From positions 11,669-75,668 of the forward strand of contig DASPSR010000042.1 of the NCBI GenBank assembly GCA_035623825.1: a stretch of DNA of 64,000 nt, given 5' to 3'. This DNA is from Nitrospirota bacterium. Lineage in GTDB: Bacteria > Nitrospirota > UBA9217. Positions within the stretch are counted from its first letter, which is position 1; every line of letters begins with the position of its first letter. Shown here one piece after another: positions 35,229-46,424 of this stretch. The notes under the pieces are model-generated. The model was not told the DNA's origin and did not search any database. It saw only the letters and a program-made list of their open reading frames with translations. Position numbers and translations under genes: made by a program.

Positions 35229-37187
35229 TTACCATTTCATGGACAGGGTGGCCAATAGAGTTGCAAACTCGCCGTCCTGGGTGTTGTCAATTTTATCGTC
35301 ATACTGCTGATACTGGTAGCGGATCTCTCCGTCCGTGTTCTTGCCGAGCCCCATTTGAACACCGAAAGCATAGACGGTGTCGACGACCCTCATATTCGAT
35401 AACTCAGGGATTCCTCCCACGTTGGTCACGCTGCTCGTCCCTGTAAGGCAGAAATTGCCCCGCGAGTAGCTCCTGCTTCCCGATGCCGTGAGATTCATTC
35501 TATCTATCGGAGAATAAGTCAGTGCAAGTGATCCTACGTGGGCAATGTCTGCGTAAGGGACACCTGGTTCGAGCGACAAAGCGCCTGTCCCGTCTTGAAA
35601 GGTGACGGTCTGATTGACATTGTTTTGGAAGTAGGAGTAGCTCGCCGTGATCGAAGAGCGGTTGCCGACCAAGAGCGTAACGCTGGCAAGGCCCTGATCG
35701 CGTCTGACCTCCCTGCTCCCGCCGGCCAGAGGCGCCACCAGATCATTCCGGCTCTCCCGCACAGTACTGTAACTGAGCAGGGTATTGATCCTCGTCGCAG
35801 GCGTCCAGGTGAGCGATGCCTGTCCAGACTGCGCCCGGTCAGGGTCGGTATCGTAGGCCGGGTTGTTAATCGCCGTATAAGCATAATCCCCGCGGAAGGT
35901 AAGCCTATTCATGATGCGGTACGCAAGTTCTATCCTCGCTGTTCCCTTGGTGGTCTTATCCGGCAGGTCCCAGAATGCCTGGCCGCCTGGAGGAAATGGC
36001 AGAGAGGTCCCAGGAACCCCTACGGAGCGGTCAATCATGTCCAAGACATACTGGCCCTTAAATGTCAGACGGTCGGTTGCCCGGTAACGGATTGTTCCAT
36101 CCACAACGTCCCGTGTCGAAGAGATGGCGTCCCTGACACTGTTCGGGCCACTGACTATGGTGGGGACTGGGGTTATGTTATTGACCATGCTGGGGTTGCT
36201 TTCATCCTTATCGTAGTGCCGATATTTGAGGACGAACATCACGCTGGTCACGGGCAATAACATAAGGTCGCCCCCCGCATTCCAGTATTGCACCTTCGCT
36301 CCGCTGGAGTCATTTTTTGAGTCCCCGTTCGTGACAGTACCCGCAGCAACTACTTTCCCTGAATACATCGTGTGGATCTTCACCGTATCGGACGAGGATT
36401 CAAGAGTGGGAGTTAAATTATGCGGGACCGGATTGGACCCTGGGGCGTACGTGTCGTACAGTACGTTGCTGTCGTACGATGTGAACCGCTTATCCATGTG
36501 GCTGTAATCAACTTCTACCGGTCCGAGGTGGCTGTTCGCGCCAACCGTAACCTCCCGTGTAAACCAATCGATATCCCTGGACTCTGAGATCTTGTTGAGG
36601 CCACCGGAAAATCCGCGCAAGAATATCTGCTGTATGGTCCCTTCCCGCTCGACGGTCCGCAGGTCTGCGTACAGGTGGAAAGGATAGTCCGGCGTCTTAA
36701 AGCGGATGAATCCATTCTCCAGCCTGTTCTCAGCGCCATACATGGCCCCGGGGTTTAAGTCGGTGAAGGTCGGCGTGCCTGGCGGCGCTGGTGCGGGAGG
36801 AAGATTTTCGGTTAAATGATTAAGATTATGGAACATGTCTCTCGCAACCCAGTTAAAGAGCACGATATCCTTGAAGGCGTAATCCGTCTCAACGAAGTAA
36901 TCCTTGGTATTCAAATAATAGGACTCAACTGCAACGCGGTGAGGCAGCGGGTCCCATTCCAGGTCCAGCGCGCCGATGGCAGAAGACCTGAGATAATCAT
37001 ACTCTCCGGCGTGAGCGGGATTCCCTTCCTGATCTATAGTCCGATAGCCCAGGCTGATCCTGCCTTCAAAGGCCTCCAGACGCTCCCCCGCAGCGGTCTC
37101 TGCCGTGCTTGTCCCCGAGGGTTGCTGTGCTAGAACCGGGGAGGCCCAGAGCATCAAAAATGCGATTATGAGAATGGTCTTTTTCAT
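35229..37187 (-). CDS. MtrB/PioB-family outer-membrane beta-barrel porin (porin-cytochrome conduit sheath)
   Basis: Signal peptide MKKTILIIAFLMLWASPVLA. 652 aa with an alternating amphipathic beta-strand pattern rich in Y/T/G/N/D. The C-terminus is ...LSMKW. It lies immediately downstream of two decahaem cytochromes in mtrC-mtrA-mtrB order, and the sizes (644/341/652 aa) match Shewanella MtrC/A/B (671/333/697). Confidence 0.7.
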   Translation of the reverse strand: MKKTILIIAFLMLWASPVLAQQPSGTSTAETAAGERLEAFEGRISLGYRTIDQEGNPAHAGEYDYLRSSAIGALDLEWDPLPHRVAVESYYLNTKDYFVETDYAFKDIVLFNWVARDMFHNLNHLTENLPPAPAPPGTPTFTDLNPGAMYGAENRLENGFIRFKTPDYPFHLYADLRTVEREGTIQQIFLRGFSGGLNKISESRDIDWFTREVTVGANSHLGPVEVDYSHMDKRFTSYDSNVLYDTYAPGSNPVPHNLTPTLESSSDTVKIHTMYSGKVVAAGTVTNGDSKNDSSGAKVQYWNAGGDLMLLPVTSVMFVLKYRHYDKDESNPSMVNNITPVPTIVSGPNSVRDAISSTRDVVDGTIRYRATDRLTFKGQYVLDMIDRSVGVPGTSLPFPPGGQAFWDLPDKTTKGTARIELAYRIMNRLTFRGDYAYTAINNPAYDTDPDRAQSGQASLTWTPATRINTLLSYSTVRESRNDLVAPLAGGSREVRRDQGLASVTLLVGNRSSITASYSYFQNNVNQTVTFQDGTGALSLEPGVPYADIAHVGSLALTYSPIDRMNLTASGSRSYSRGNFCLTGTSSVTNVGGIPELSNMRVVDTVYAFGVQMGLGKNTDGEIRYQYQQYDDKIDNTQDGEFATLLATLSMKW

Positions 37188-37200
37188 TTATGAGCCTCCT

Positions 37201-38226
37201 CTACTGTATGAAATGGCCCTGGCCGCTTGGTGACGGCAGGTCCGAACCGTGTATCTGTGAATGGCAGTCCGTGCACCGCGTATAGAATGCTGTCTTCTGC
37301 GCGGCAGTCGTCGCTGCAGCCGGGGGCGCACTGACGATCGGGTGGGTCGGATGGCACTGCAGGCAGAGGAACGGCTCGCGCAGGAGGAGCAGGTTGCTGT
37401 TCACCGACCCGTGCGGCGTATGGCAGGCGCGGCAATCGTCGGTAAGGTCAGCATGCTCGTACACAAACGGGCCCTGCTTCTCCGCATGGCACTGGGTGCA
37501 GGTTGCCTTCACCGTTTCCCGCCTCAGGTTCCTCTCTCCGCCTCCGCCATGCGGATCGTGGCAGTCGGTGCAGAACACCTTCTTTTCCGGCACGGGATGG
37601 TGGTTCGGCAGGGAGAACGCAGCCTGCACGTCCTGGTGACAGCGCTCGCACATTTCTGCTGTGTCTTTGAGCTTGACCTTGAGGTTGTGTCCTCCGTGGA
37701 TCTTATGGCAGTCGGAACACGACACGTCGGCAACGTTGTGGATGCTCGAATTCCAGTTATGCAGGTTGAACGTCGCGTTGGCCGTATGGCACTTCAGGCA
37801 GATAAGTGATTTTGCCTGGGCGGGCAGGTTCTTGATGTCGATTAGGGTCTTGAAGTCGCAGGCCGTCTTCTTTCCGGCCTTGGCATCGGCAGCGAGCCTC
37901 TGCGGTGTCAGAGGATCTATGGCGAGGCTGCCCGGACCGTGGCAGCTCTCGCAGTTCACCAGCGGCAGACCCGATTCCCTCGAGAGCTGAGCGCCCATGG
38001 TCGAGAGGTCGAAATCGCGCCTCTTCTGGTCGTGCTCGTGGCATGCCTTGAGGCAGTTATCCGTGCCTACATAGTCGGCGTCGAGCCGGCCGGCAATCAT
38101 CTTCTCGTAATCCTTGATCGGGAAAATCGGCCTTGCTTCCTTGAGAGCCGCACATCCAGCGGCAAAGAAGGCGCCGAGAATCCCGATTGCCAGCCATTTC
38201 TTCCATGTGAATAGTCGTTCCATCAT
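37201..38226 (-). CDS. Periplasmic decahaem c-type cytochrome, MtrA/DmsE/PioA-like
   Basis: 341 aa with a signal peptide. There are 9 canonical CxxCH motifs (CESCH, CLKCH, CSDCH, CERCH, CTDCH, CTQCH, CRACH, CLQCH, CTDCH) plus one CxxxCH (CLKACH). Confidence 0.8.
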   Translation of the reverse strand: MMERLFTWKKWLAIGILGAFFAAGCAALKEARPIFPIKDYEKMIAGRLDADYVGTDNCLKACHEHDQKRRDFDLSTMGAQLSRESGLPLVNCESCHGPGSLAIDPLTPQRLAADAKAGKKTACDFKTLIDIKNLPAQAKSLICLKCHTANATFNLHNWNSSIHNVADVSCSDCHKIHGGHNLKVKLKDTAEMCERCHQDVQAAFSLPNHHPVPEKKVFCTDCHDPHGGGGERNLRRETVKATCTQCHAEKQGPFVYEHADLTDDCRACHTPHGSVNSNLLLLREPFLCLQCHPTHPIVSAPPAAATTAAQKTAFYTRCTDCHSQIHGSDLPSPSGQGHFIQ

Positions 38227-38252
38227 CTAGCCTCCTTTACCTAAGCGTTGGG

Positions 38253-40187
38253 TTAGGGCCGTTCTGCCTCGCTTCCGAATCCACCCGGGTATGCGCCATT
38301 CCAGAGCGGCCCGTTTGGAAGAAGATATGCCTTGGCTCCCTGGCACCAGGCGGGCGGTGTGCCGCCGCTGCACGCGGTGCTGAGAGTCGCACCGACCGAA
38401 TAGTTCATTATCCCGTCATCGAGCCAGTCGAGAGAGTCGTAGATCAATCTTTTCGCAAACCTGCTGTTATGCACATAGGCGCCCCATTCATGAGTGAGGA
38501 GGCTGAAGTTAAACGCGGCACCCAGATTGTTTTTGCCGGTCGTGTTGCCCGTTATATCCGCATCACCGGCGGAAAGCCAGTTTTTGTTGGCGAAATACGG
38601 ATAATTGGTGGTGAATGTATAACCGGATATAATGAGCTCTGCTTGGAGTGCCTGCAAGGCAGAATCGAAGTTGTTCTTTTCGTCCTGCACTACCGTACCA
38701 AAATCTATGCTGGAACCGGCATGGCAGGCAAAACAAACCGCGCTCGATACAACGATGTTCCCCATATTCGTACTGATTGGCTCAAAGAGATGGTTGCCAC
38801 TCATGCCCGTCCGGTCCATATGGCATCCGACGCAAGGGCCGTTCGAGCCGGTGTTCGGGGCATTTGGCGTGCCGATCTGATTGTGCTTGAACGAAGCGGG
38901 GTCAGCATAGTTCCTCCCGGCATATACGTACGGCGTGCCCTTGAACATCGTTCCGCCTGCGGAGAGGTAGTGTCCGTCAGGGAAACTGAAATTGCTGAAA
39001 TTCACGGTTGCTGTCTGTCCGGTATTCAAATCGCTGACCGCCGTGCCGTTTACGCGCCCCGTGTGGCAGGGAATACAGACATTCGAGATGGATAGATCAG
39101 GGTACTGGAAATATGCTGTAGAGCTCGGGGCGGAGCCGATCGTATACGTTGCCTTATAGGCTCCCGGATTCCTGAGGTCACCCGCATTGTCTGTGTGACA
39201 GCCTCTGCACTCGAGCATTTCGGGCTTGAAGTTCAAAGCAGAGGGTACAAGCGCTATGCCGCCGGCTACAATGGTTGCGGCCAATGATTGGTTTCCCGCC
39301 TGAAGCGCATCGGCATACGTCGCAAAACCGGTTGTCGTATGACAGCGCTGACAGGCGGTCCTGCTCGCCAGCGACCAGTCGTAATGAGCCCAGGCATCTG
39401 CCGCAAGCATATCCGCATGCTTCGAACTGGCCCAATCTCTGTTGATGTCGGCATTCTTATGCGGATTGTGGCAGTCGGTACAGACGGTATCGCTCGCAAA
39501 ATTCATGGCATAACCGGTAATATTATTGCTATTTTGACTAGTTCCTGACGCCCCCCAGTTGCCGGGGGTGGCAAAGTGCGTGTCAGTGATAACGTATTGA
39601 GTTCCATTGGGGGCAGGTGCCCCTGCTAAATGGGTCGGCGAAGCATTAAGAGCTCCTGTTGAGGTATCGAGCAGATTATGACAAGCCGTGCACATGACGA
39701 ATTGTCCAGAGACCGCTACGGCGCCGAAGCTTGTCCCCGTCGTGTTCGAAAGGAGGGATATCGGCCCGGCCCCGCCGGCATCTGCATGCAGGCTCCCGGG
39801 ACCGTGGCAAGCCTCGCAGCCGACCACCGGACGAGGAACATTCCCCGTGTATCCTGCTGTGAGATTGTTGCTGTCCCCGTCAGGGTCATGACAACTGATG
39901 CAGCCTGAGCCGCCTGCCTGGACAAGACCCACTGTCGGAACGCCTGCACTGTACAGGTTACCTGCAGGATCGAGATTCCCGTGTTTGCTCATAAGCCAGT
40001 CGGCTGTTTCGGTGGTATGACATCCTGCGCACCTATTCAGTCCTGCAGTCGTAGTCGCTGCAGAAAGAACGCTTGAAGTCGCCGGCCCGATAGCCGAATC
40101 GGACTTGCCGCAACCTCCGAGCATGGCGATACATGCAAGCATGAAAAGAAAAACGAGGACTGTTCTGCTTCCCTTCTTTGTATTCAT
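38253..40187 (-). CDS. Outer-membrane lipoprotein decahaem c-type cytochrome (functional analogue of MtrC/OmcA)
   Basis: Lipobox MLGGCGKS. Ten CxxCH motifs (CAGCH, CISCH, CEACH, CTACH, CTDCH, CQRCH, CRGCH, CIPCH, CVGCH, CFACH). 644 aa. Confidence 0.8.
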   Translation of the reverse strand: MNTKKGSRTVLVFLFMLACIAMLGGCGKSDSAIGPATSSVLSAATTTAGLNRCAGCHTTETADWLMSKHGNLDPAGNLYSAGVPTVGLVQAGGSGCISCHDPDGDSNNLTAGYTGNVPRPVVGCEACHGPGSLHADAGGAGPISLLSNTTGTSFGAVAVSGQFVMCTACHNLLDTSTGALNASPTHLAGAPAPNGTQYVITDTHFATPGNWGASGTSQNSNNITGYAMNFASDTVCTDCHNPHKNADINRDWASSKHADMLAADAWAHYDWSLASRTACQRCHTTTGFATYADALQAGNQSLAATIVAGGIALVPSALNFKPEMLECRGCHTDNAGDLRNPGAYKATYTIGSAPSSTAYFQYPDLSISNVCIPCHTGRVNGTAVSDLNTGQTATVNFSNFSFPDGHYLSAGGTMFKGTPYVYAGRNYADPASFKHNQIGTPNAPNTGSNGPCVGCHMDRTGMSGNHLFEPISTNMGNIVVSSAVCFACHAGSSIDFGTVVQDEKNNFDSALQALQAELIISGYTFTTNYPYFANKNWLSAGDADITGNTTGKNNLGAAFNFSLLTHEWGAYVHNSRFAKRLIYDSLDWLDDGIMNYSVGATLSTACSGGTPPAWCQGAKAYLLPNGPLWNGAYPGGFGSEAERP

Positions 40188-40984: not shown

Positions 40985-41866
40985 TTACAGAGAGCAGAGG
41001 ACATGGGACATATGGGAAACCATGGCCCCTCTTCTCTTTGCCTCATGCCGAATGCCCTTTCCGTCCTTCGCCCGCCCTTCTCTCACTATGCTCTCGATGA
41101 TCTCCTGGTCTATTATCTTGAGGCCCTTGCCGAAACCTTCAACGAGCGCATTGCCCGCAATGGTGTTGATAATGCGCGGAACGCCTCCTGAACGCTCGAA
41201 CAAAGCCGTGTTCGCTTCTTCATCAAAGAGCAGCGTTTCCCTCCCCGCTACCCGGAGCCGGTGCTTCACGTACTCTCGTGTCTCGTCCTCGTCAAGCGGG
41301 CCCAGGTGATACTGCATTCCGATCCTCTGCCGAAGCGCCCTGTACTGGCGTCGGTCGAGCCGCTCCCCGAGCTCTGTCTGGCCGATAAGCAGGATCGCGA
41401 GAAGGTTGCGGTCATCGAGCTGGAAATTCGTAAGCAACCGCAGTTCCTCGAACGTGGCCTTGCCGGAGATAAGCTGCGCTTCGTCAATGATGACCACCGG
41501 TCGCTTCCCGGCCTCGAAGAACTCATACAGCTTTGCATTGATTCCCTCAATGATGCTGTGGCAATCCCGGCTCGAGCACTCCATCTCGAGGCCGAGGGCC
41601 ACGGTTCTCAGAAGATGTAGCGGCGAAAGCCGCGGGTTGATTATCAGCATCGGATGAAAGCTCCCGTCCAGCGAATCGATGAGCGCACGGGAAATCATCG
41701 TCTTGCCCGTACCGATATCGCCGGTCAACAGGGCAATGTCCTGGTCCTCTGCCGCAAGCTGTAGCCGGGCGAGGGCCTCGGCATGCTTGGCGCTCTGGTA
41801 GAAAAAACGCGGGTCAGGCGTCTTTTTGAACGGCTTTTCGCTCAGTCCGTAAAATTCTTCATACAT
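40985..41866 (-). CDS. ExeA/GspA/MshM-like AAA ATPase (AAA_22)
   Basis: Walker A GDIGTGKT and Walker B VVIIDEAQ. The N-terminus YGLSEKPFKKTPDPRFFYQS is typical of the ExeA family. Confidence 0.7.
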   Translation of the reverse strand: MYEEFYGLSEKPFKKTPDPRFFYQSAKHAEALARLQLAAEDQDIALLTGDIGTGKTMISRALIDSLDGSFHPMLIINPRLSPLHLLRTVALGLEMECSSRDCHSIIEGINAKLYEFFEAGKRPVVIIDEAQLISGKATFEELRLLTNFQLDDRNLLAILLIGQTELGERLDRRQYRALRQRIGMQYHLGPLDEDETREYVKHRLRVAGRETLLFDEEANTALFERSGGVPRIINTIAGNALVEGFGKGLKIIDQEIIESIVREGRAKDGKGIRHEAKRRGAMVSHMSHVLCSL

Positions 41867-41998: not shown

Positions 41999-44008
41999 CT
42001 ACTGTCTGCTGACAACGACCGATCTTTTGAGAGCCCCTTCGATGAGTGATTCAACATCCAGCACGAGCACAACGCCGCGTCTGTCTCCCAGCTCCGTGGC
42101 GCCAGCAATGCCCGGTATCTCCGATATCCGCTTTCCAAGAGGCTTGATGACGATCTCCTGCTGGTCCCGGAGACCGTCAACCATGATCCCCAAGCGGCGC
42201 TCTGCGAGACCCACGAGGATGAGGTAGAATGAGTTGCTGCTGGGCTTCGGGGTCAGTTTGAACGCCTTCGTAAGCCGATAGAGCGGTATCGTGTCGCCAC
42301 GGATGGCCATCACCTCGCGTGTCTCCACGGTCTCTACCTGGTCATGCGTCGCCTGAATGATCTCGAGCACGGCGCTGAGAGGCACGGCAAACACCTCTCC
42401 GCCGGCCTCCACTACGAGTGCCTTGATGATGGCAAGGGTTATGGGAAGCGTGATGATGAATTTCGTTCCCATACCCGTCTCGGTATCGATATCAATCATA
42501 CCGGACAGCTTGGAGACATTCCGTTTCACCACGTCCAAACCCACACCACGGCCCGAGATTTCGGTTACGGTCTCGCGGGTGGTGAAGCCGGGAAGGAAAA
42601 TGATATCCAGAATCTCTTTGCGGTCGGTCTCAGGATCAAGGCCATGGTCCGAGGGGAGAACCGCTTTCTGCACTGCCTTGGCCAGGATATTCTTCGTTTC
42701 TATCCCCGCTCCGTCGTCTTCGACGGTGATCACCACATGGTTGCCCTTGGGGAATGCCGCGAGCTTTACCACACCGTGTTCCGGCTTTCCCTGCTGTTTC
42801 CGTATTTCGGGGAGTTCGATGCCGTGGTCAATGGCATTCCTTATGAGGTGCATGAGCGGGTCGGCAAGGTCCTCGATCATAAGCTTGTCGAGTTCGGTCT
42901 CTTCTCCCGAAAGATGGAGATCGATCTCCTTTCCCACTTCTTTCGCGTACTTTCTGACCATCTGTGAAAGGCGCGTAAAAATCTGGCCGATTGGAACCAT
43001 TCTAACCTCAAGGATCCCCTCCTGGAGGTCGTTCAGCTTCCTCTCCAGGCTGCGCTGCGCCTTGTGCAGATCCACGGAAAGTCCTGCGAATCCGTGCATG
43101 GATCTCAACTCACGCGCGATGCGACCGATGATGTTCTTGGTGAGGTGCATCTCACCGACTACGTTCATAAGGCCGTCAAGCTTGTAGATATCCACGCGGA
43201 CAGTATTGCTCACCGACTTGATCGCACCCGTTTCCGATACCGCCCGTTGCTCTTCCACCTTCCGCCCCTCGACGTACGTTATCGGGTCGAAGGACACCTT
43301 TGGCATATTGATCGCCGACATGAGCTCGTCACGTCCCATTGCGGTGCCGGCCACAATGGTAAATCCGATGCCGCCTGCGGCCGCGCCGGCCGTGGGCAGG
43401 GTGCAGATAATTTCAGCGTTCTTTTTGAGCACATCATTGAGGTTCTTGATGCCTTTTTCGAAATCGGTAAGCTCGAACAACGCCTTAATGGTGAAAAGGT
43501 TTTTGTGCTCCCTGATATTTTCCTTGAGTCGGTATTCTTCGTATTCCGTAAGGACTTGGAGGAGCCCGCGGTCAATTTCTATCTGATCCAGGATAGACCG
43601 GTCAGCGGCTGTGGAAGGCTTGGCTTTGAGGATTCCGTCGATGCGGTCAAGCGCGGCCGCTATGTCTTCCGGCTGCTCCTTGTTGCCCACTTGCTGCACA
43701 TGCCGTCCGAGCAGGGCCACGGTCTCGAATAGCACATCGAGGACGTCCCGGCTGAGCGCTGTTTTCCCGAGACGGACCTCGTCGAGGAGGAACTCCAGTT
43801 TGTGTGAGAGCTCTGAGGGGGCCTTGAGCCCGAACATCCCGGCGAGTCCCTTGAAGGAATGGATTGCGCGAAAAAGGCCGTTCACCAGATCCGGAGCCGA
43901 GCGCCCTGCGGCCTGTTCGGACTCAAGCGAGAGCATCGTCTGGTTGGCCGTTTCGAGAATGTCTTCCGCCTCGGCTAGAAAATCCTTTATAGAACGGTCT
44001 GATTTCAA
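41999..44008 (-). CDS. cheA: Chemotaxis histidine kinase CheA
   Basis: Hpt domain (HSFKG), dimerisation domain, HATPase_c (GRGVGLDVV) and a C-terminal CheW-like domain. 669 aa. Confidence 0.9.
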   Translation of the reverse strand: MKSDRSIKDFLAEAEDILETANQTMLSLESEQAAGRSAPDLVNGLFRAIHSFKGLAGMFGLKAPSELSHKLEFLLDEVRLGKTALSRDVLDVLFETVALLGRHVQQVGNKEQPEDIAAALDRIDGILKAKPSTAADRSILDQIEIDRGLLQVLTEYEEYRLKENIREHKNLFTIKALFELTDFEKGIKNLNDVLKKNAEIICTLPTAGAAAGGIGFTIVAGTAMGRDELMSAINMPKVSFDPITYVEGRKVEEQRAVSETGAIKSVSNTVRVDIYKLDGLMNVVGEMHLTKNIIGRIARELRSMHGFAGLSVDLHKAQRSLERKLNDLQEGILEVRMVPIGQIFTRLSQMVRKYAKEVGKEIDLHLSGEETELDKLMIEDLADPLMHLIRNAIDHGIELPEIRKQQGKPEHGVVKLAAFPKGNHVVITVEDDGAGIETKNILAKAVQKAVLPSDHGLDPETDRKEILDIIFLPGFTTRETVTEISGRGVGLDVVKRNVSKLSGMIDIDTETGMGTKFIITLPITLAIIKALVVEAGGEVFAVPLSAVLEIIQATHDQVETVETREVMAIRGDTIPLYRLTKAFKLTPKPSSNSFYLILVGLAERRLGIMVDGLRDQQEIVIKPLGKRISEIPGIAGATELGDRRGVVLVLDVESLIEGALKRSVVVSRQ

Positions 44009-44099: not shown

Positions 44100-44471
44100 C
44101 TATTCACCCTCCAACGCCTTGTTCACTGCAGCCATTAGATCTTCCTTCTTGAAAGGTTTAACTACATATCCGGTAGCCCCGAGCGCTATGCCCCTTTTTT
44201 GGTCTTCCTCGCTCTTTTCGGTGCTCACGATGATTAGGGGAATGTCCTTATAAGCGGCATTCGACTTTACAAAGCTGATCAACTCAAGGCCGTTGATGTC
44301 GGGCATATTGATGTCAGTGATTATCAGGTTGAAGCGTCGTGTGGGAAGGGTTTTGAGGGCTTCAAAGCCGTTCCCGGCTTCCACCGCAAAGAACTCTCCC
44401 ATTTCCTCGAGAGAGACCCGCATCATCGAGCGTATGGCCTTGGAATCCTCCACGATAAGGACGTTCTTCAT
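44100..44471 (-). CDS. cheY: Chemotaxis response regulator CheY
   Basis: 123-aa REC domain with DINMPDING and KPF. Confidence 0.9.
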   Translation of the reverse strand: MKNVLIVEDSKAIRSMMRVSLEEMGEFFAVEAGNGFEALKTLPTRRFNLIITDINMPDINGLELISFVKSNAAYKDIPLIIVSTEKSEEDQKRGIALGATGYVVKPFKKEDLMAAVNKALEGE

Positions 44472-44599
44472 TTTCGCTCCTTCTGAAGGTCGGCAGGTCT
44501 CTTTTCCAGCAGGCCCTTTTCCAAGACCATCCCCGCCTGATTGATGAATATCTCGAGAGTATCCACGCCTTTGATCGGTTTCTGATCGGGCAAGTTGTC
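44290..44599. repeat. Copy 1 of a ~310-bp diverged direct repeat (~93% identity) covering the cheY 5' end plus a DUF4388-gene 3'-end remnant
   Basis: Aligned by eye to 45016-45326. There are about 20 substitutions plus a 1-bp indel. The remnant still reads in frame as ...FINQAGMVLEKGLLEKRPADLQKERK-stop, overlapping the cheY ATG. Confidence 0.8.
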
Positions 44600-45015
44600 T
44601 CCCTATGCGTTATCAACGCCCAAGATTCTCTTCATTTTGTTCCAAGCGCTATTACTGTTTTTTTATCGCATCCTTATGAATCCATCCTATGCTCGACTTG
44701 CAATATTTATACTAAATTTATATTTTAAAATATGTCAATAAATCAATTTGTTACAGCGCGTGAAACGCTTTCCCCAGTGTTGGAAAATACTACACTGATG
44801 GAATCTTAACGGACAAAATTTGACAGAGCAGTCTTGGCTCTTTAAAAATCTCGGGGCGCTTTTCGAGAGAACAGCGGCTCCCGGTTGAGCTTGGCTAAAC
44901 TGGGTTCAGATATTTCTTGGAAGAGCAGGGAAACAGCTTCGTATTCAATCGCGATCACTTGGTGACGGTGTACGTCGTATGCGACGGAACAGGCGTTACA
45001 AAGCTGATTGGAAAA

Positions 45016-45194
45016 AGCCGTTGATGTCGGGCATATTGATGTCAGTGATGATCAGGTTGAAGCGGTTTGCGGGAAGAGTTTTGAGGGCTTCAAAGCCGTT
45101 CCCGGCTTCCACCGCAAAGAACTCTCCCGTTTCCTCGAGAGAGACCCGCATCATCGAGCGTATGGCCTCGAATCCTCCACGATAAAGACGTTCT
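45016..45194 (-). pseudogene. cheY N-terminal fragment, about 60 codons, frameshifted and truncated
   Basis: It begins MKNVFIVEDS... with the same ATGA overlap to the DUF4388 gene as the intact pair. A 1-bp deletion relative to intact cheY sits at about 45160. Sequence then diverges into the AT-rich spacer. Confidence 0.7.
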
Positions 45195-45326
45195 TCATTT
45201 TCGCTCCTTCTGGAGGTCGGCAAGTCTCTTTTCCAGCAGGGCCTTTTCCAGGGCCATCCCTGCCTGGTTCATGAATATCTCGAGAGTATCCACGCCTTTG
45301 ATCGGTTTCTGATTAGGCAAGTTGTC
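45016..45326. repeat. Copy 2 of the direct repeat, covering the true 3' end of the DUF4388-GAF gene plus a truncated, frameshifted cheY 5' fragment
   Basis: As copy 1. The two copies are separated by 416 bp of ORF-free, AT-rich sequence (44600-45015). Confidence 0.8.
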
Positions 45327-46340
45327 ACCATATACAACCAGCGCTATCTTTCCGTCCACAATCAGCGGTATTGCGAGTACCATATCGGGCTTGACCCCGC
45401 CGAGCTCATTGACGAGGTAGTTGTTGCTCTCATTCGATGCAAGCTGACCGAGAAAACTTCGTCGGTTTTCGATCACCGTAAGGAACAGCGACGGTTGATT
45501 GAGCGGGATTTTGATATTGCGGACGACCTGGTCGGCGGACATGTTCTTGAGGTCTATCCCGAACTGGCCGAGACCTCGAACCTCGTCCTTCTTCACCATG
45601 AACAAGATAGCACGGTTGACAACCTCGCTCGCATACCGCAGGATGAGGAGCGTCACCTCTGCCGTTGCTGTGGGGAACCTTAGTTCGTCGAACATGGACT
45701 TGAGCACAGTGATCTCTCTGCGCGGTACTTCTGTCTCTATGCGGGTGAGGAACTCTTCTTTGGCCGGTTCGTAGCTGACGCGGTGAGTGGCCGGAGCTTT
45801 TGATGACGGGGCGGCTGTCTTGTGCATGCCTTTCCGCTTCTCATCGAGGATCCGCGTTCCCTCCATGAGGAGATACTCGGCACTGATGCCGGACTTGAGC
45901 AGGAACTCCTGGGTGTCTATCTCGAAATTGTCCTTTGAGGCTATATCTCCGAGCTCGAAGTTGAAAAAGCCCTCTTCCCACGCAAGCAGATCATAGATGA
46001 TCTCCTCAATCTGTTTACGGACGACGGTCTCGAGCGTTTGTGCGGGCACGACCCCCATCTCCACGAGGATCATGCCGAGTGGCTTGTCGACTTTCTCCTT
46101 TTGCAGCGCCAGCGCCTGGGACAGCGCCGTTTCGGTCAGCATTCCCTGCGAGACAAGGATATTTCCAAGGGAATCGCGGATACTGTCACTAGCGGCCTGA
46201 ATTACCTGGCCGCCCTTGAATACGACCATCCCTGTTCCCTTGCGGCTACGCACAAGGAGGGTGCCGGTTTTCTTACTCAGACTAATGATCTGGAAGATAT
46301 CGGGTAAAGCAAGATCTTCCAGCCTGCCAACAAGGCTCAT
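45195..46340 (-). CDS. DUF4388 (PATAN-like) N-terminal domain protein with a C-terminal GAF-like domain
   Basis: N-terminal LEDLALPDIFQIISLSKKTGTLLV matches the DUF4388 signature. 381 aa. Confidence 0.6.
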   Translation of the reverse strand: MSLVGRLEDLALPDIFQIISLSKKTGTLLVRSRKGTGMVVFKGGQVIQAASDSIRDSLGNILVSQGMLTETALSQALALQKEKVDKPLGMILVEMGVVPAQTLETVVRKQIEEIIYDLLAWEEGFFNFELGDIASKDNFEIDTQEFLLKSGISAEYLLMEGTRILDEKRKGMHKTAAPSSKAPATHRVSYEPAKEEFLTRIETEVPRREITVLKSMFDELRFPTATAEVTLLILRYASEVVNRAILFMVKKDEVRGLGQFGIDLKNMSADQVVRNIKIPLNQPSLFLTVIENRRSFLGQLASNESNNYLVNELGGVKPDMVLAIPLIVDGKIALVVYGDNLPNQKPIKGVDTLEIFMNQAGMALEKALLEKRLADLQKERK

Positions 46341-46424
46341 GCACTCTCCCTGTTACTCATTTTCAACAAATTATATCAACTTGAAAAAAAGAAGCAAGTT
46401 TAATCATCGGTCAGGTAGACAGGA

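Follow-up and report, generated by a model that had tools for sequence, protein, structure and literature searches.

An ancient, gene-converted insertion scar between a PATAN gene and cheY in one clade of uncultured Nitrospirota

Type IV pilus chemosensory systems include regulators with a PATAN domain (10.1101/2021.06.11.447907; PMC11181946). The PatA-type (PATAN-REC) regulators PixG/PixH of Synechocystis, in which PATAN/DUF4388 is tied to a CheY-like receiver near CheA (10.1101/2021.06.11.447907; PMC11181946), are the described counterparts of the locus analyzed here, a run of DUF4388, cheY, and cheA genes in a 64,000-nt stretch of DNA from a Nitrospirota bacterium (GTDB lineage UBA9217; GenBank assembly GCA_035623825.1, contig DASPSR010000042.1, positions 11,669 to 75,668; hereafter the window). 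Unlike PATAN-REC regulators, the two partners are separate genes here that ancestrally overlapped or abutted and lie 727 nt apart in the clade of the window. An earlier note on this DNA had pointed to a repeat of the DUF4388/cheY junction around an insert, and comparison with related loci establishes, at the level of sequence, that this repeat is an ancient, fixed insertion scar common to one clade of uncultured Nitrospirota. The scar very probably records a single old insertion-duplication with later gene conversion. The wider statement, in which the insert also provides an internal promoter for cheY and cheA, is one that we favor with some reserve.

Each component has a known parallel, and the locus is a new instance of known processes. 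Its repeat-insert-repeat (R-S-R) topology, with both copies truncated toward the insert and the segment internal to an operon, is that of a Campbell-type insertion-duplication or of a tandem duplication with filler DNA. The event was natural, ancient, and fixed, and no vector or circular donor is known. The later history resembles concerted evolution of a gene and a nearby partial duplicate or pseudogene, with the copies within a genome being closest to each other in two independent lineages. It departs from the usual form in that the partners form a pair of half-gene pseudogene stubs, one on either side of an insert, and no multigene family is involved. The candidate promoter recalls the architecture of nifH, glnHp2, and Pu, in which a sigma-54 promoter that depends on an enhancer is combined with an IHF bend; the sigma-54 consensus is TGGCACG-N4-TTGCW.

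Layout and single origin of the split junction

All features of the locus lie on the minus strand unless stated otherwise. In gene direction, copy B is the upstream repeat copy, beside intact DUF4388, and copy A is the downstream copy, beside intact cheY; S is the unique non-coding DNA between them. Read in that direction, the locus runs from intact DUF4388 through truncated cheY to S, and on through truncated DUF4388 to intact cheY, both truncated ends facing S. The intact DUF4388/PatA_N (PATAN) gene (ORF at 45195-46340) encodes 381 aa (Pfam PF14332, 1.5e-32) with a weak GAF-like match at the C-terminus, and has homologs at 64-96% identity. Copy B (44996-45333) holds its 3' end, the ATGA, and the 5' part of cheY. 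That 5' part belongs to a cheY pseudogene stub (44955-45198; tblastn and nhmmer with a profile of the parental region), after which come S (~330 nt, 44638-44966; an nhmmer profile of S matches this locus only) and a pseudogene remnant of the DUF4388 3' end (44472-44635, approximately residues 318-381; tblastn plus extended homology). Copy A (44267-44606; repeat search, MAFFT, and BLAST) is attached to intact cheY (44100-44471, 123 aa; Pfam Response_reg, 3.2e-27), and cheA is the next gene of the operon (41999-44008, 669 aa; Pfam Hpt, H-kinase_dim, HATPase_c, and CheW).

That the junction is present twice, including its ATGA stop/start overlap, was confirmed by repeat search, BLAST, and MAFFT; in the MAFFT alignment, each copy holds the last codons of DUF4388, the ATGA, and the first ~68 cheY codons. 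A comparable repeat does not occur by chance. The repeat search of the window returned two gapless segments, 44443-44606 versus 45170-45333 (92%) and 44286-44440 versus 45014-45168 (95%), whose start-to-start spacings of 727 and 728 nt imply the 1-nt indel previously described between the copies. BLAST joined them into 340 nt at 91.5% identity with two gaps (~44267-44606 versus 44996-45333), compared with the identity of about 93% given earlier. Weaker homology, detected by nhmmer and alignment, lengthens both copies: the remnant reaches ~44635 (approximately DUF4388 residue 318) and the stub ~44966 (approximately cheY codon 74-80), where the parental-region profile extends to model position 814. 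The last ~64 codons of DUF4388 therefore fall in the duplicated unit, and the insert, first taken as 416 bp, shrinks to a foreign core of ~330 nt.

One genome per species was scanned, yielding 55 related Nitrospirota loci. Further carriers of the insertion were added by looking up homologs at 96-86% identity (L069-L074, L086, and L087; L-numbers denote related loci or lineages, and WIN the window's own lineage) and by a motif scan of metagenome contigs (L076-L085). Of the 55 species loci, 53 have a single-copy junction at which DUF4388 overlaps or abuts cheY. The other two, L014 and L015, are the closest (88% protein identity) and carry stub, spacer, and remnant. L075 (86%, 380 aa) lacks the insertion, and its DUF4388 and cheY likewise overlap or abut, which brings the more distant Nitrospirota loci in which the insertion is not present to 54 (53 species loci plus L075). 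The comparison with related genomes that had been proposed thus identifies the single-copy, overlapping or abutting junction as ancestral. The insertion layout is found in L014, L015, L069-L074, and L076-L087, corresponding to ~19-20 distinct lineages. A search for an insertion-free allele among close relatives found none, as both P0003 (96%) and P0023 (86%) carry the insertion.

Carriers are monophyletic with 100% bootstrap in a tree of concatenated DUF4388+cheY+cheA, and S aligns end to end across all of them. Given this monophyly and the orthology of S in all carriers, we attribute the insertion to one event in the ancestor of the clade, as anticipated by the suggestion of an ancient insertion or duplication scar. 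The event is old, because carriers differ so much that their identity at 4-fold sites drops to 0.51-0.6; within the clade, neutral divergence is close to saturated. Proteins identical to the DUF4388 and cheY products were recovered on contigs of nine metagenome assemblies (JGI and ENA records, some of which may re-assemble the same samples), and a 2.4-kb region is 99.96-100% identical in every contig long enough to span the locus, which rules out an assembly artefact. A relative, L014, has the same layout within a contig of 957 kb.

S has no detectable parental counterpart. Neither local alignment nor an nhmmer profile built from 49 single-copy species, covering the 3' 600 nt of DUF4388, cheY, the intergenic region, and the 5' 200 nt of cheA, detected parental homology in the central ~330 nt, which excludes a simple tandem duplication with a decayed parental middle. 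Searching the window plus 75 loci (867 kb) with an nhmmer profile of S gave no homolog besides the orthologous site, and S is therefore not derived from the region upstream of DUF4388 or from nearby DNA. A motif scan of metagenome contigs returned 10 matches, all at this locus, and viral contigs gave 0 matches. S has no terminal inverted repeats, only short imperfect internal ones. The proposal of a mobile element resembling a miniature inverted-repeat transposable element (MITE) accordingly fails, and an origin from a MITE or insertion sequence (IS) is rejected: S lacks terminal inverted repeats, and neither the window nor ~870 kb of loci, the metagenome scan, or the viral contigs yielded a second copy.

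The base composition of S is uneven. The AT-richness reported for the spacer holds for the cheY-proximal half (GC 0.35-0.39 at 44600-44900) and not for 44800-45000, where GC is 0.49. Likewise, the absence of ORFs is correct for conserved ones, of which S has none, although small unconserved ORFs exist. Invariant columns make up 26% of S compared with 24.5% of 4-fold sites, the neutral yardstick used here, and because the two fractions are equal, most of S drifts neutrally. We regard S as foreign in origin and mostly neutral.

These findings demonstrate an origin by a single insertion-duplication. In the sequence of events so reconstructed, one insertion-duplication in the clade ancestor split the translationally overlapping DUF4388(PATAN)-cheY junction, leaving ~330 nt of foreign S flanked by a ~430-nt direct duplication (DUF4388 codons ~318-381 plus cheY codons 1-~78). 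Two routes could lead there: a tandem duplication of ~430 nt in which ~330 nt of filler DNA entered the new junction, or the integration, by one Campbell-type crossover, of a small circle made up of the duplicated segment and S. By either route, the locus illustrates how overlapping genes can be parted with neither of them lost, here with ~430 nt of duplicated flank.

Pseudogene decay and gene conversion

Both truncated genes are pseudogenes that drift neutrally and have been disrupted independently across lineages, as shown by relaxed dN/dS (~1) together with independent frameshifts and lost starts. The cheY stub retains an ATG at 45198 and loses its frame through a 1-nt deletion in codon 10 (~45170), confirming the frameshifted stub noted previously in the upstream copy. 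Its ORF is 15 aa in the window and an intact 76-81 aa in nine other listed loci, lengths over the lineages being 7, 15, 30, 36, and 76-81 aa, and the start codon is gone in L072, L083, and L078. Among relatives, dN/dS is 0.5-2.0 for the stub versus 0-0.09 for live cheY. A functional truncated CheY is ruled out by this dN/dS of ~1 and by the repeated disruption.

The DUF4388 remnant, described earlier as 26 codons, in fact keeps the last 44 codons open (41 from a TTG), ending at the ATGA of cheY and matching DUF4388 residues 338-381 at 89% (tblastn). A 16-nt deletion breaks its frame in the L014, L015, L079, L082, and L084 lineages, and with the frame lost in these five, a conserved leader peptide is ruled out for this ORF. 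Gene callers label the stub as a 52-81-aa 'Response_reg' protein and the remnant as a 41-71-aa hypothetical protein (L001/L002 7187-7345, L071 4143-4388, L086 3643-3873, and equivalents); in annotation, the stub fragments deserve a pseudogene flag.

The palindrome CGTCGTATGCGACG (CGTCGCATACGACG; 44973-44986), singled out by the earlier note, lies inside the decayed cheY stub, is partly conserved, and is followed by no T-tract; it is ruled out as a terminator by the missing T-run and its location in the stub. Separately, a terminator-like hairpin, CTCTCTCGAGGAAAYGGGAGAG then TTCTTTGCGG (44394-44415), occupies cheY codons ~19-29 and has a second copy in the stub (45122-45143); it may be a coincidence with coding sequence.

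Similarity between the two copies varies sharply among carriers. Within-genome A/B identity is 89.5% in WIN, 91% in L069, and 93% in L071, and 73-82% in L070, L072, L073, L074, L014, and L015. Between genomes, copies of like position are more distant than the two WIN copies are from each other (WIN-B/L014-B 79% and WIN-A/L014-A 82%, versus 89.5% for WIN A/B). The copies of L073, L074, L014, and L015 cluster by position (B-B 84-94%, A-A 89-97%, and A-B 76-82%). The distribution of individual differences follows the same division: of the 37 A/B differences in WIN, 12 are common to L069 and 1 to L071; only 3 of the 58 in L014 are common to WIN; and L014 and L073 have 30 of 59 in common. Paralogs within a genome are thus more alike than orthologs between genomes while S remains orthologous throughout, the pattern expected of conversion, and the edges of the converted tract are sharp (44606/45333 and ~44290/45016).

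The later history is one of neutral drift followed by conversion in the ancestor of WIN and L069 and, independently, in L071. Each of these conversions came after the insertion and re-homogenized both stubs, every stub being converted from the live gene across the insert. Because conversion re-homogenized the copies, the repeats look ~92% identical and hence young; high repeat identity can mislead on age, and here gene conversion reset the clock. The possibility had been raised that relatives share the duplicated structure as a fixed feature under purifying selection. The structure is indeed shared, old, and fixed, the similarity of its copies being due to gene conversion and not to purifying selection. 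No evidence for a selective role of conversion was found at this locus.

Conserved islands in the insert and a candidate promoter

Against its neutral background, S contains four conserved islands, which span a composite element of ~125 nt and are all oriented to cheY. Their spacings (20, 50-51, and 39 nt) are fixed in the 18 lineages tabulated, whereas indels are common elsewhere in S and the core island lies 222 to 258 nt upstream of the cheY ATG, depending on the lineage. The first island is a near-dyad, GTCAAATTTTGnC (GTCAAA-T-TTTGnC; 44812-44824), unique in the window and located at a fixed ~110 nt upstream of the core. Alignments place it in 18 of 18 tabulated lineages, exact in 13 and with single-base variants in L072, L073, L074, L076, and L080, and we regard it as a candidate regulator-binding site. 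Block I (GATTCCATCAGTGnAGnnTTTTCCAACAC, 29 nt, 44777-44805, single copy in the window) is the most conserved element of the insert. Across 11 lineages, 23 of its 30 columns are invariant against an expectation of 24.5% (P ~3e-9), including an 11-nt invariant run (P ~1e-4), and it is a candidate upstream activating sequence. Near-dyad and Block I together are located 90-110 nt upstream of the core.

The third island is a predicted IHF site identified by alignment, TAACAAATTGATT (TAAnnnnTTGATT; 44741-44753), the reverse complement of the IHF consensus WATCAANNNNTTR. In 16 of 18 lineages the match is perfect, at a constant 39 nt upstream of the core, with TAA and TTGAT conserved and the intervening NNNN variable. 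The core itself, TAGTATAAATATTGCA in the window (44699-44714; alignment and promoter scan), follows GTATA.ATATTGC with one variable column in 16 lineages; a second column varies in L072 and L087, giving two over 18. In 12 lineages it reads TGGTATAAATATTGCT (TGGTAYARATATTGCT), with the GG-N10-GC spacing of a sigma-54 -24/-12 element, and the window and the five lineages nearest to it have TAGTATARATATTGCA, with AG in place of the GG. An imperfect inverted repeat, GATTCCATC (44797-44805) and GATGGATTC (44678-44686), brackets the IHF-like site and the core with ~110 nt between its arms; both arms lie in conserved blocks and show no covariation.

Taken together, the islands may form an internal, activator-dependent promoter for cheY-cheA and downstream genes that is independent of DUF4388, a reading we hold to be evenly balanced, although it is the best supported of the functions considered for S. 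It is suggested by the order, spacing, and orientation of the islands, which fit an activator-dependent promoter facing cheY. The cheY gene itself would no longer need coupling to DUF4388, because it has kept its own GAAGGAG ribosome-binding site (44477-44483, within the DUF4388 remnant), which is also kept in relatives. Sigma-54 is widely tied to motility genes (PMC3162934). Relative to enhancer-dependent sigma-54 promoters with IHF, the upstream sites of the locus fall at about -136 to -89 and a perfect WATCAANNNNTTR at about -65 to -53, and the TGG-N8-TTGC of 12 lineages has GG-N10-GC spacing. Unlike such promoters, the window and its five closest relatives have AG for GG, and the -24 hexamer differs from TGGCAC at its third and fifth bases. 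The core would accordingly be of sigma-54 form in most lineages and read better as sigma-70 in the window's subclade.

The background rate of the pattern TGG-N8-TTGCW in the loci is 0.029 per kb on each strand, TGGNA-N6-TTGCW has no match in the window, and no sigma-54 motif was found in 16 kb of sequence upstream of DUF4388 in relatives. On the gene strand, a sigma-70 scan located TTGACA-18-TAGTAT at 44738-44709 (10 of 12 matches; TTGACA at 44733-44738). TAGTAT is common to only six lineages, the others having TGGTAT, and the -35 varies between TTGACA, TTGAAA, TTGAAT, and TTTAAT. The site previously put forward, TTGACA-N17-TAAAAA, does exist at 44820-44849, on the plus strand, where its TTGACA is the reverse strand of the conserved near-dyad; being antisense, with a -10 that is not conserved in relatives, it is rejected as a promoter for cheY-cheA. 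What survives of the idea that a tandem duplication placed a new promoter before cheY is therefore the topology and the conserved promoter-like elements facing cheY, and not the particular site named. The proposed uncoupling of cheY/cheA from DUF4388 is made plausible by the same elements.

Several points weigh against the promoter and the account built on it. The promoter is a candidate read from motif conservation, and promoter-like hexamers are common in AT-rich DNA. In the window, the AG in place of the -24 GG is expected to cripple recognition by sigma-54, and the sigma-70 alternative has a non-conserved -35. No rpoN, enhancer-binding protein, or ihf gene is among the annotated ORFs of the 64-kb window. 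There is no terminator between DUF4388 and S on the gene strand, so that read-through from the DUF4388 promoter may suffice and S need do nothing. Block I also overlaps an antisense micro-ORF. Finally, the R-S-R topology would fit filler duplication and circle integration alike.

In a rival reading, the insertion is old, fixed, and inert, with cheY-cheA expressed by read-through from DUF4388 and the cheY Shine-Dalgarno sequence, and with islands that are unrelated or due to chance. Such a neutral scar agrees with the overall evolution of S at the rate of 4-fold sites, the lack of a gene-strand terminator between DUF4388 and cheY, the conserved GAAGGAG, and a window core without the sigma-54 GG. 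We consider it unlikely, because the invariance of Block I (23 of 30 columns, P ~3e-9) and of the core (12 of 13) lies far beyond neutral expectation, and island spacing is free of indels in 18 lineages versus frequent indels elsewhere in S.

If the islands do form a promoter, this clade controls CheY/CheA apart from the PATAN protein, which would matter for a chemosensory cluster that also holds a porin-cytochrome module, and the locus would exemplify regulatory DNA recruited before internal operon genes. A more elaborate version of the promoter reading is decidedly speculative. It holds that S was a foreign sigma-54/IHF-type promoter cassette, captured once, that rewired the operon and separated PATAN from CheY/CheA control. 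A later G-to-A change would have switched the window subclade from sigma-54 to sigma-70 with the upstream sites kept, and the converted arms may permit excision or amplification of S, as contig L010 (see below) may hint.

It is improbable that the conserved part of S instead encodes a product, either a small or leader RNA on the gene strand or an antisense micro-protein. For an RNA, folding of the entire spacer is slightly more stable than that of shuffled sequences (z = -1.9), yet the putative 5' UTR does not (z = -0.14), consensus folding by alifold gives 0 to -8.5 kcal/mol with no covariation, and the S region has no Rfam match at the gathering threshold or even at E <= 1. The hidden small RNA once suggested, and a riboswitch with it, is rejected on these null results. 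For a micro-protein, the candidate is a plus-strand ORF of 25 codons, MSINQFVTARETLSPVLENTTLMES (44732-44809), overlapping Block I; a short ORF with the same core (VLENTxLMES) is readable in most lineages, but its start and stop shift between them, translation stopping after LMES in WIN, L015, L079, and L084 and after LM(E/Q) in L074, L076, and L080. In addition, the dyad is conserved even in lineages whose ORF does not include it, and of the three variable Block I sites, two are at first codon positions. The moving start and stop and the variation at first codon positions led us to judge the micro-ORF non-coding.

The least credible alternative, a recent tandem duplication, an active mobile element (MITE or IS fragment), or an assembly artefact, could appeal to the 91-95% identity of the window repeats and to two short contigs that end at the repeat, one of them (L010) with a hybrid 5' end, but is contradicted by the identical locus on contigs of nine metagenome assemblies, by orthologous S and layout in ~19-20 lineages with 4-fold-site identity down to 0.51-0.6, by the lack of terminal inverted repeats and of any other copy in the window, loci, metagenome scan, or viral contigs, and by a ~430-nt flanking duplication far beyond the length of a transposition target-site duplication. 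The artefact or recent event for which the earlier note had allowed is thus discounted, since nine assemblies agree and relatives share the structure.

Contig L010 (positions 1-372; ENA ERZ27251256 k141_1163258) is a separate observation. Its first ~80 nt resemble a downstream-type DUF4388 remnant of a slightly different strain, and an upstream-type copy follows (frameshifted stub, S, remnant, and cheY). Two explanations fit L010: an assembly chimera that joins strains at the repeat, or a genuine amplification to R-S-R-S-R through unequal crossing-over.

Genomic context

A long chemosensory cluster on the minus strand (23714-46340) begins with this locus. Upstream of DUF4388 (46341-46400, minus strand), TTGCTT-N16-TATAAT was read by eye after a hairpin/T-run behind yajQ; the promoter scan did not flag it because its -35 matches at only three of six positions. 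This is likely the native promoter of the operon. Toward lower coordinates, the cluster comprises cheA, an AAA_22 ATPase gene, cheW, two multiheme cytochromes, an MtrB/PioB-like porin, a substrate-binding protein, two methyl-accepting chemotaxis proteins (MCPs), cheW, a HEAT-repeat protein, cheR, cheB, and a GAF protein. The AAA_22 ATPase gene (40985-41866, minus strand) between cheA and cheW keeps its position in relatives and is unusual for a che operon. Between cheW and the MCP genes lies a porin-cytochrome module (35229-40187, minus strand) consisting of an MtrB/PioB-like beta-barrel (35229-37187) and multiheme cytochromes of 341 and 644 aa, which suggests that chemosensing is connected with extracellular electron transfer. 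Farther along the same strand, 531-21768 is occupied by a Wood-Ljungdahl/C1 block that includes a formate-dehydrogenase-like molybdopterin enzyme, NuoE/F-like subunits, the beta and delta subunits of acetyl-CoA synthase/CO dehydrogenase (ACS/CODH), a pterin-binding protein, methylenetetrahydrofolate reductase (MTHFR), and an HdrA/FlpD-like protein; this gene content agrees with an anaerobic lineage of Nitrospirota.

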